A stretch of 64,000 nucleotides of DNA from Candidatus Sungiibacteriota bacterium (GTDB lineage Bacteria; Patescibacteriota; Minisyncoccia; Sungbacterales; SURF-37), in NCBI GenBank assembly GCA_016203665.1, contig JACQMJ010000004.1, forward strand, positions 4,214 through 68,213, read 5' to 3'. The notes below the pieces were generated by a model. The model worked only from the letters and a program-made list of their open reading frames with translations. It had not been told where the DNA came from and ran no database searches. Position numbers and translations under genes: made by a program. This document shows positions 49,777-52,150 of this stretch, in pieces (position 1 is the stretch's first letter; the number at the start of each line of letters is the position of its first letter).

Positions 49777-51824
<2,048 letters not shown>

Positions 51825-51856
51825 CATCCTAACAGCAAACCGCTAGGGTAACCGCG

Positions 51857-52117
51857 GAGCATGGGAACAGCGTGGTACTCGTGGGTAGCCATCCAGATCC
51901 CGGTGGCGATAGGCGAGTAAACCCAGCAATGGGGAAGGTTCGATTCCTTCGGCTGGTCCGCTGGGACGCTACCTATAAGCGTAGGATAGGTGGGAGGCGA
52001 TGAAGACCCGGCTCCGGCTGGGTTGGAGCCGCCCTTGAAATACCACTCGATAGGCAGTGTCTCGGAGGATACTGTGCTCCGGGGAGGTGTAGCTTGCCTC
52101 CCCTCAATTCAAAACTA
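51857..52117 (+). ncRNA. candidate structured ncRNA containing a 23S rRNA L1-stalk (H76-H78) homolog and a tRNA T-arm mimic
   Basis: No ORF. 51980-52047 reads GCGTAGGATAGGTGGGAGGC..TGGAGCCGCCCTTGAAATACCAC. 51935-51951 reads GAAGG-TTCGATT-CCTTC. Bounded by TTGACA-17-TAGGGT (51822-51850) and the terminator at 52117-52150. The ends are approximate. Confidence 0.6.
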
Positions 52118-52150
52118 AAACAGGCGCCGCAATGCGGCGCCTGTTTTATT
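52117..52150. terminator. bidirectional rho-independent terminator (topA/ncRNA side and parB side)
   Basis: aaaacaggcgccg-caat-cggcgcctgtttta. Confidence 0.85.

Follow-up and report, generated by a model that had tools for sequence, protein, structure and literature searches.

A predicted family of stand-alone small RNAs in Patescibacteria joins a copy of the 23S rRNA L1 stalk to a tRNA-like T-arm

A structured RNA gene between topA and parB

We analyzed a 64,000-nt stretch of DNA from a Candidatus Sungiibacteriota bacterium (contig JACQMJ010000004.1, positions 4,214 to 68,213; hereafter the window), in which the genes topA and parB flank a non-coding region. A first-pass annotation, made from the letters of the sequence, had described this region as holding a stand-alone, structurally maintained copy of the L1 stalk of 23S ribosomal RNA (rRNA), formed by helices 76 to 78 (H76-78), together with a transfer RNA (tRNA) T-arm hairpin. 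A significant match to the Rfam large-subunit rRNA model and eight homologs with compensatory changes bear this description out. The predicted RNA is about 250 nt long (approximately 51856-52103), and comparative sequence analysis indicates that it belongs to a family of stand-alone, structured small RNA genes that are scattered through Patescibacteria and were not recognized before. A TopA protein identical to that of the window is encoded on the metagenome-assembled genome (MAG) GCA_964559385.1, contig CAZLFX010000001.1, assigned to Candidatus Sungbacteria (Parcubacteria group, Patescibacteria). The features of the locus, with stems from the minimum free energy (MFE) fold or from homologs as stated, are as follows.

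49776-51824, plus strand: topA, with Toprim, Topoisom_bac and Zn-ribbon domains
51821-51849, plus strand: promoter of the RNA gene, -35 TTGACA at 51821-51826, 17-nt spacer, -10 TAGGGT at 51844-51849
51856-51864, plus strand: P1 5′ strand, GGAGCAUGG, pairing with 52072-52080 (MFE)
51868-51871, plus strand: P2 5′ strand, CAGC, acceptor-like, closing the T-arm domain by pairing with 51952-51955
51872-51933, plus strand: variable insert of the tRNA-like domain (MFE)
51934-51950, plus strand: T-arm, stem GAAGG/CCUUC, loop UUCGAUU, equivalent to tRNA positions 49-65
51952-51955, plus strand: P2 3′ strand, GCUG, one nt past the T-stem
51956-51979, plus strand: 5′ strand of the long arm, consisting of P3ext (GUCC), P3 (CUGGGAC) and lower H76 (GCUACCUAU..G), pairing with 52048-52070
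51980-52047, plus strand: L1-stalk head (Rfam RF02541 alignment)
Within the head, plus strand: 9-nt strand CGUAGGAUA, with the G2112 equivalent at 51981
51989-51993 with 52043-52047, plus strand: H77, GGUGG with CCACU
51996-51998 with 52028-52030, plus strand: proximal H78, GGC with GCC, followed by the internal loop GAUGAA/GGA
52005-52012 with 52017-52024, plus strand: distal 8-bp stem of H78, with a UCCG tetraloop
52031-52042, plus strand: 12-nt strand GCCCUUGAAAUA, with the A2169 equivalent at 52038
52048-52070, plus strand: 3′ strand of the long arm (lower H76, P3, P3ext; MFE and homologs)
52072-52080, plus strand: P1 3′ strand, CUGUGCUCC (comparison of homologs)
52081-52103, plus strand: 3′ hairpin GGGGAGGUG-UAGCU-UGCCUCCCC, directly past P1 (MFE)
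52116-52150, both strands: strong bidirectional intrinsic terminator with a 15-bp stem and a T-run on each strand (terminator scan)
52212-53171: parB, convergent toward the RNA gene

The E. coli numbering of the head (G2112, A2169) is our own mapping of the Rfam consensus onto standard helix coordinates.

The head is recognizable as rRNA. The Rfam model LSU_rRNA_bacteria (RF02541) matched 51963-52063 with 59.2 bits and an E value of 5.4e-15 over model positions 2120-2221, which correspond to H76-78, and found no further rRNA in the 64-kb window. With a match of this significance, the possibility that the likeness to H76-78 arose by chance fails. The match spans 101 of the 2925 model positions, in agreement with the earlier view that the segment lies outside any working 23S gene: the sequence and structure of H76-H78 are present, and the remainder of a six-domain rRNA of about 2.9 kb is missing. 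By BLAST, the 23S-like part is confined to the head of about 66 nt (query positions 129-194, 26% of the unit), which is 77%-79% identical to the E. coli 23S gene and as much as 86% identical to those of other bacteria. Positions 51985-52046 include the L1-stalk blocks GGATAGGTGGGAGGC and GGAGCCGCCCTTGAAATACCAC, and GGGAGGC and GGAGCC are separated by 26 nt, equal to E. coli 23S, as the first pass had stated. The lower part of H76 and the flanks are unrelated to 23S in sequence. The flanks had been read as degenerate versions of the neighboring 23S segments, but local alignment of the members to the E. coli 23S flanks did not support this when compared to shuffled sequences, with the sole exception of the 3′ flank in the window (z = 2.75).

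The whole unit folds at -153.8 kcal/mol (z = -6.2 versus dinucleotide shuffles) as a three-way junction of P1, P2, and P3. In the plan shared by the members of the family, P1 closes the RNA, P2 carries the variable insert and the T-arm, and a long arm leads to the L1 head. The arm from head to junction measures approximately 22-25 bp, or roughly 62-70 Å, and in the window zero nt separate the 3′ strand of P2 from P3. The T-arm proposed in the first pass is real and canonical, although it had been placed one base off; the accompanying statement that it lacks an acceptor stem does not stand, since the short P2 closes the T-arm and covaries. The insert of the window RNA begins with GUGG, a possible analog of the D-loop GG, and continues with a long hairpin (approximately 51876-51919) and a CCCA-GCAA-UGGG hairpin (51922-51933). 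Among members, the insert varies in length and shape, with zero to two hairpins, and in one homolog (L008) its layout is that of a cloverleaf-like four-way junction. By a tentative reading of the sequences, GG occurs within a few nucleotides past P2 in six of the nine members.

Transcription of the RNA would start at approximately 51855-51857. The -35 hexamer TTGACA overlaps the TGA stop codon of topA (51822-51824), as first read, and the promoter was skipped by a consensus promoter scanner, TAGGGT matching the consensus at only three of six positions. When we read the sequences of the homologs, a -35/17/-10 layout lay about 7 nt upstream of the conserved 5′ end of the RNA in each member: TTGACT-17-TAGAAT in L007, TTGACT-18-TATAGT in L002, GTGACA-17-TAGAGT in L008, TTGACA-17-TAGATT in L015, and TTGACA-17-TAGGGT, the same as in the window, in L020. 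The bidirectional terminator of the first-pass annotation was recovered by the terminator scan, is common to the RNA gene and the convergent parB, and gave terminator-like partial matches to Rfam on both strands. A similar G-rich 3′ hairpin follows P1 in all Sungbacterial members, and in L013 and L015 a U-tract after the 3′ hairpin makes it the terminator. The conserved -35/-10 layout, the terminators and the unrelated neighbors elsewhere indicate that the window RNA is a predicted transcription unit of its own. The unit had been said to hold no credible open reading frame (ORF), and we likewise dismissed its small ORFs (43, 42, and 80 amino acids [aa]), as alignments of the homologs reveal indels and helix-wise compensation with no codon conservation.

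Homologs and compensatory evolution

The nine members are the window RNA and eight homologs (L002, L007, L008, L010, L013, L015, L016, and L020; L011 is identical to L010) from other MAGs and metagenomes, which represent independent assemblies and samples (NCBI, ENA, JGI). A search for syntenic homologs 3′ of topA, proposed with the first-pass annotation, was fruitful: five other Sungbacteria carry the RNA at the topA-parB position. In L002 (topA 83% identical), L008, L010/L011, and L020, it lies between topA and the next gene; in L007, recovered by a metagenome pattern scan, the order is topA-orf-RNA-parB. L002, L008, L010, and L020 were found by synteny rather than by a sequence pattern. The remaining three homologs (L013, L015, and L016) came from a one-genome-per-species scan with the pattern GGTTCRA-N28-58-GGATAGGTGGGAGG and belong to other Patescibacteria, where they adjoin pgk/HIT, dnaX/GtrA, and uvrA. 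L013 and L016 are labeled Saccharibacteria. A fourth match of the T-arm and head pattern (L014) was a chance match inside a coding sequence. A first genome scan with a pattern of the 5′ box and head yielded no match, the metagenome scan yielded one locus, and a pattern scan of viral contigs yielded none. At the syntenic topA site of seven relatives (L003, L005, L006, L009, L012, L017, and L019), the RNA is absent.

The association with topA is local synteny within Sungbacteria only. Since the other members adjoin pgk/HIT, dnaX/GtrA, or uvrA, and have promoters of their own, the RNA is not tied to topA, and neither a topA 3′ element nor a relA leader accounts for the family in general. The Rfam LSU model found nothing, even at E ≤ 0.1, in the seven homologous loci L002, L007, L008, L010, L013, L015, and L016 (L020 was left out); thus, standard annotation would miss the family except for the window copy.

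The alignable core extends from the T-arm to the 3′ strand of H76 (alignment A3, covariance model R1). The R1 scores of all nine lie at 91-127 bits; each locus holds a single copy, and R1 found nothing else in 160 kb. As L020 was outside the R1 seed, its fit is an independent test. In the nine-sequence alignment, 92.4% of core cells were paired, compared to 36%-54% with slid partners; changes occurred on both sides at 16 of the 28 core pairs, and none of 500 shuffles attained any of the observed covariation measures. The outcome by which the first-pass annotation could have been refuted, an element that is not conserved and shows no covariation in relatives, is contradicted by nine members with compensation at these 16 pairs.

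Outside the core, the nine members each form a P1 with perfect or almost perfect pairing, from five unrelated sequences in total (GGAGCAUGG/CUGUGCUCC, AGAGGUU/AACCUCU, GGAAAUCUG/CAGAUUUCC, GGACACGGAA/UUUCGUGUCC, and GGCUCGGGCA/UGCCCGAGCC). P2 occurs as CAGC/GCUG, CAGU/GCUG, AGCC/GGCU, CAACG/CGUUG, CAACU/AGUUG, and CACU/AGUG, and P3 also covaries among members. The T-stem is 98% paired in the nine members. Three of its five pairs differ at both positions between members, and the G-C pair that closes the loop, which corresponds to G53-C61 of tRNA, never varies. The loops read UUCGAUU, UUCGAGU, UUCGAAA, UUCAAUU, UUCGACG, or UUCGACU; the sole deviant is AUCGUGA in L002. Thus, a 5-bp stem with G53-C61 and a U54-U55-C56-R57-A58 loop is present in eight of the nine.

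For lower H76, pairing amounts to 82%, and six of its seven pairs covary. Within the head, H77 is invariant, one proximal H78 pair changes from G-C to A-U in L020, and the distal stem of H78 covaries at six of eight pairs, which agrees with the earlier reading of this hairpin as maintained rather than decaying. GGAUAGGUGGGAG is invariant, including in the members found by synteny (L002, L008, L010, and L020), and UUGA(A/G)AUACCAC, which was in no search pattern, is nearly so. The G2112 equivalent is kept in all nine members and the A2169 equivalent in eight. The distance from the end of the T-arm to GGAUAGG is 31-35 nt in every member. This spacing is steady in spite of a hairpin in the opposite strand that is present in some members and absent in others: in L002, L010, L008, and L020, the 3′ side of the long arm contains an additional hairpin, at the position of H79 in 23S.

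Several features of individual members stood out. In L002 (6153-6170), the deviant T-loop amounts to a swap of positions 54 and 58 from U..A to A..U, and there is no GG past P2; possibly, the swap and the lost GG are a coupled change in the elbow mimic. In L016 (1306-1535), the P1 3′ strand UGCCCGAGCC can alternatively form the hairpin GGUGGCU-GCCCG-AGCCACC, and the two folds are mutually exclusive. The 3′ hairpin of the window (52081-52103) pairs a GGGGAGG that resembles a Shine-Dalgarno (SD) sequence with an anti-SD-like CCUCCCC, a pairing conserved in Sungbacterial members only. The heptamer CCGGUGG recurs in the 5′ variable domain of the window RNA (51900-51906), L007, and L002; in L008 (approximately 5300-5310) and L020 (approximately 4893-4902), it follows the inserted hairpin on the 3′ side. 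It holds GGUGG, as in the 5′ strand of H77, and alternative pairing or domain shuffling is possible.

A possible receptor for tRNA elbows and its rivals

In the ribosome, the elbow of E-site tRNA stacks on G2112 and A2169 of the L1 stalk. Elbow recognition by interdigitated T-loops is common to the L1 stalk, RNase P, and the T-box (PMC4810234, PMC4919913); the role of the L1-stalk T-loop motif has been described (PMC4810234), and T-box Stem I and RNase P gave rise to the concept of a tRNA caliper (PMC4919913). Because the best-conserved nucleotides of the RNA build the elbow-docking platform, with strands conserved as in the L1 stalk, the most likely reading is that its L1-stalk head serves as an extra-ribosomal docking site for the elbow of a tRNA or tRNA-like element. 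We give this reading a probability of roughly 40%. The tRNA-type identities of the T-arm (the G-C closing pair and UUCRA), its fixed distance from the head, the predicted separate transcription of the unit, the reports that the OD1-L1 group and Paceibacteria lack uL1 but keep H78 (PMC5220378, PMC12641178), and the missing Shine-Dalgarno signal of the window also speak for it.

In such a mechanism, the G2112 and A2169 equivalents would form a platform that stacks on the flat G19-C56 face of the elbow. As the arm is about as long as one tRNA arm, the other end of the docked tRNA would reach the junction and the T-arm domain, and the RNA would act as a two-point caliper, as do T-box Stem I and RNase P. 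The RNA's own T-arm, an elbow mimic, could be the second jaw, a built-in competitor, or a ligand for the head of a second copy in head-to-tail self-association. Since zero nt separate P2 and P3, P2 and the T-arm may stack on the arm, placing mimic and receptor at opposite ends; this geometry would argue against docking within one molecule and leave room for head-to-tail association. Candidate physiological outputs are the sequestration, sensing, or delivery of tRNA. A fuller version, which we hold to be more doubtful than docking as such, is that the RNA adds a third, trans-acting member to the natural tRNA calipers, alongside RNase P and the T-box: a free copy of the E-site gripper, on an arm as long as that of tRNA, that captures or senses tRNAs, or joins its own elbow mimic, in bacteria whose ribosomes have lost uL1. 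In this version, it may belong to the "alternative ribosome regulation" that has been postulated in the OD1-L1 group.

Several observations weigh against elbow docking. We infer tRNA binding solely from homology to the L1 stalk, whose stacking on the elbow is weak by itself, and we identified no second specific contact, such as a specifier, in the RNA. L013 has a C at the A2169 equivalent, the T-loop of L002 is non-canonical, and a D-loop-like GG is present in just six of nine members. The H77/H78 junction, which contacts uL1, is likewise conserved, and an H78 of rRNA length (8 bp and a tetraloop) is not obviously needed for pure elbow docking. Part of the conservation of the head is ascertainment, as GGATAGGTGGGAGG was a required element of the pattern that recovered four members. 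The distribution is patchy: at the locus, close relatives have no such RNA, which is therefore probably accessory.

The main rival is that the RNA binds uL1. As in the repression of the L11 operon by L1, its H77/H78 replica would bind free uL1, acting as a sponge, a chaperone, or a relocated, trans-acting autoregulatory site. Autoregulation of ribosomal proteins by rRNA mimicry is an established type of mechanism and counts in favor of this explanation, as do the H77, proximal H78, and junction nucleotides, which are invariant or changed only with compensation, and an H78 with the geometry it has in rRNA. Moreover, L013 and L016 carry the label of a class, Saccharibacteria, that was reported to keep uL1 (PMC9297842). 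These points are offset by others, and we regard the explanation as weakened and unlikely. Searches with tblastn for L1, L11, L10, L12, and NusG (rplA, rplK, rplJ, rplL, and nusG) gave no match in the window or the fetched loci, and the RNA never adjoins ribosomal protein genes. Known L1 sites in mRNA copy the H77/H78 junction alone, whereas here the whole head, including the T-loops that dock tRNA, is most conserved. The OD1-L1 group of Parcubacteria and the class Paceibacteria were reported to lack rplA (PMC5220378, PMC12641178), with H78 retained in the 23S rRNA of Paceibacteria (PMC12641178). Absence of the SD signal was reported to overlap the uL1-less group (PMC9297842). In the window, SD-like GGAG, GAGG, or AGGA at -18 to -5 preceded 10 of 59 long ORFs, compared to 9 and 4 of 59 in control windows, with start codons left uncurated. 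This lack of enrichment is consistent with the anti-SD-less, uL1-less Parcubacteria group of the same report (PMC9297842). Binding of uL1 would also leave the conserved T-arm and its fixed spacing unexplained.

Somewhat less probable still is an architectural or self-associating RNA, in which a coaxial P2-P3-H76 stack, with the elbow mimic at one end and the L1 head at the other, would build dimers, head-to-tail oligomers, or a folding scaffold for another activity or a protein partner. The argument for it is one of geometry: the absence of nucleotides between P2 and P3 in the window favors coaxial stacking, with T-loop and head about 35 bp apart; intramolecular docking looks impossible by length in window-type members; and the spacing from T-arm to head is fixed. 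Natural RNA homo-oligomers are known (PMC12990946). However, the elbow may be incomplete if it has no D-loop partner, and L002 keeps its head though the canonical T-loop is lost.

Another explanation, that the resident 23S has lost H76-78 and the RNA supplies the L1 stalk in trans as a separate rRNA fragment, is very improbable. Ribosomes of the candidate phyla radiation (CPR) are reduced, with incomplete L1 stalks in some lineages (PMC9297842), and the hairpin at the H79 position in four members recalls the H75/H76/H79 junction. Against this, P3 and P1 close both strands of H76 within the RNA, so that no strand is free to pair with 23S; Paceibacteria were reported to retain H78, as described above; close relatives lack the RNA at the topA locus; and its flanks are not significantly rRNA-like.

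That the locus is a decaying rRNA or tRNA pseudogene fragment, a misassembly or assembly chimera, or merely the 3′ untranslated or terminator region of topA is refuted for the present day by nine copies in independent assemblies and different contexts, with compensatory changes and conserved promoter geometry and spacing, and survives solely as a hypothesis of origin, in which a deletion within an rRNA operon could have fused the rRNA-derived head to the tRNA-like T-arm.

Relation to known RNAs

The head resembles the L1 stalk of 23S rRNA in its 9-nt and 12-nt T-loop strands, the 5-bp H77, the 6/3 internal loop, and the 8-bp distal stem with a tetraloop. In 23S, these elements are embedded in a 2.9-kb rRNA, whereas here they belong to a separate gene of about 250 nt, in which P3 and P1 close them off and a T-arm domain is attached. 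The autoregulatory L1 sites in the bacterial L11-operon leader and the Methanococcus L1-operon mRNA are also rRNA mimics with determinants of the H77/H78 type outside rRNA. Those sites are short, act in cis in rplK/rplA operon mRNAs, and consist of the protein-binding junction only. In contrast, the RNA described here is encoded in trans, remote from ribosomal protein genes, comprises the whole head, and occurs in a lineage that probably lacks uL1. Its neighbors, topA and parB in the window and pgk, dnaX, uvrA, or relA elsewhere, likewise exclude an L1 leader of the rplK-rplA operon.

The distal platform of T-box Stem I and the S-domain of RNase P are modules of the same kind, borne on an extended helical arm about as long as a tRNA arm (PMC4810234, PMC4919913). 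The platform of the RNA is a true homolog of the L1 stalk, whereas T-box and RNase P share the motif only, and the RNA has no specifier, T-box sequence, antiterminator, regulated downstream gene, or catalytic domain. We rejected a T-box on further grounds: RF00230 did not match at E ≤ 10, no co-directional gene follows (parB is convergent), and the neighbors vary. The RNase P model gave no match at the unit; the RNase P RNA of the window lies at 589-1079.

Like the tRNA-like domain of transfer-messenger RNA (tmRNA), the bacterial Y RNA YrlA, mascRNA, and viral tRNA-like structures, the RNA has a canonical T-arm (G53-C61 with U54, U55, C56, R57, and A58) and an acceptor-like stem, with a cloverleaf-like junction in some members. 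In contrast to tRNA-type acceptors, P2 is internal and 4-6 bp long rather than a 7-bp terminal stem with a free 3′ NCCA. None of these tRNA-like RNAs carries an L1 stalk. ARAGORN found no tRNA or tmRNA at the RNA unit. The motif GGCUGAUUCU in L002 had suggested tmRNA or permuted tmRNA, which we rejected, since ARAGORN was negative, the order of the strands is wrong, and a tag ORF is absent.

No family in Rfam 15 besides LSU reached its gathering threshold. At E ≤ 10 there was no other meaningful family, the best of the tRNA type being tRNA-Sec (14 bits, E = 6). A full-text literature search retrieved no described stand-alone L1-stalk RNA and no fusion of an L1 stalk with a tRNA-like element. 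Both results accord with the statement in the first-pass annotation that no such element was known to have been described. The modules are known, but a functional rRNA domain that constitutes its own gene in fusion with a tRNA-like element represents, as far as we can tell, a new RNA class. Apart from short mimics that bind ribosomal proteins, we know of no pieces of rRNA that are independent, selected genes. Here, a copy of a whole functional rRNA module, the mobile stalk that escorts tRNA off the ribosome, has become a distinct RNA, joined to a tRNA-like element and maintained by purifying selection. If the RNA binds elbows, it would represent a new extra-ribosomal handling of tRNA and offer, in natural and minimal form, a model for how the L1 stalk and tRNA interact; should it bind uL1 or the ribosome, it would bear on the regulation of translation in CPR bacteria with reduced, often uL1-less ribosomes. 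Pipelines that annotate rRNA may call these loci partial 23S fragments or overlook them altogether; Rfam overlooked the homologs that we scanned.

We also noted features of the surrounding DNA. The topA-parB gap is variable in Sungbacteria and contains, instead of or beside the RNA, relA/spoT or other ORFs. Its contents include a 306-aa orphan ORF followed by a relic topA 3′ end (L009, approximately 6195-6360), a 65-aa Cys-rich ORF, and a 154-aa ORF with no Pfam match; the variable gaps lie at 5159-6360 in L009, 5122-5319 in L012, 4632-5096 in L017, 4985-5449 in L020, and 3′ of topA in L003, L006, L019, and L011. In L010 (5375-5440) and L011 (3390-3457), the RNA is directly upstream of a co-directional relA/spoT homolog, with only a weak U-rich tract past the 3′ hairpin, and read-through into relA is possible. 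The RNase P RNA at 589-1079 (plus strand; bacterial class A, 155 bits) is 491 nt long, compared to 367 nt for the model, with a 109-nt insertion in place of 13 model positions and several smaller expansions.

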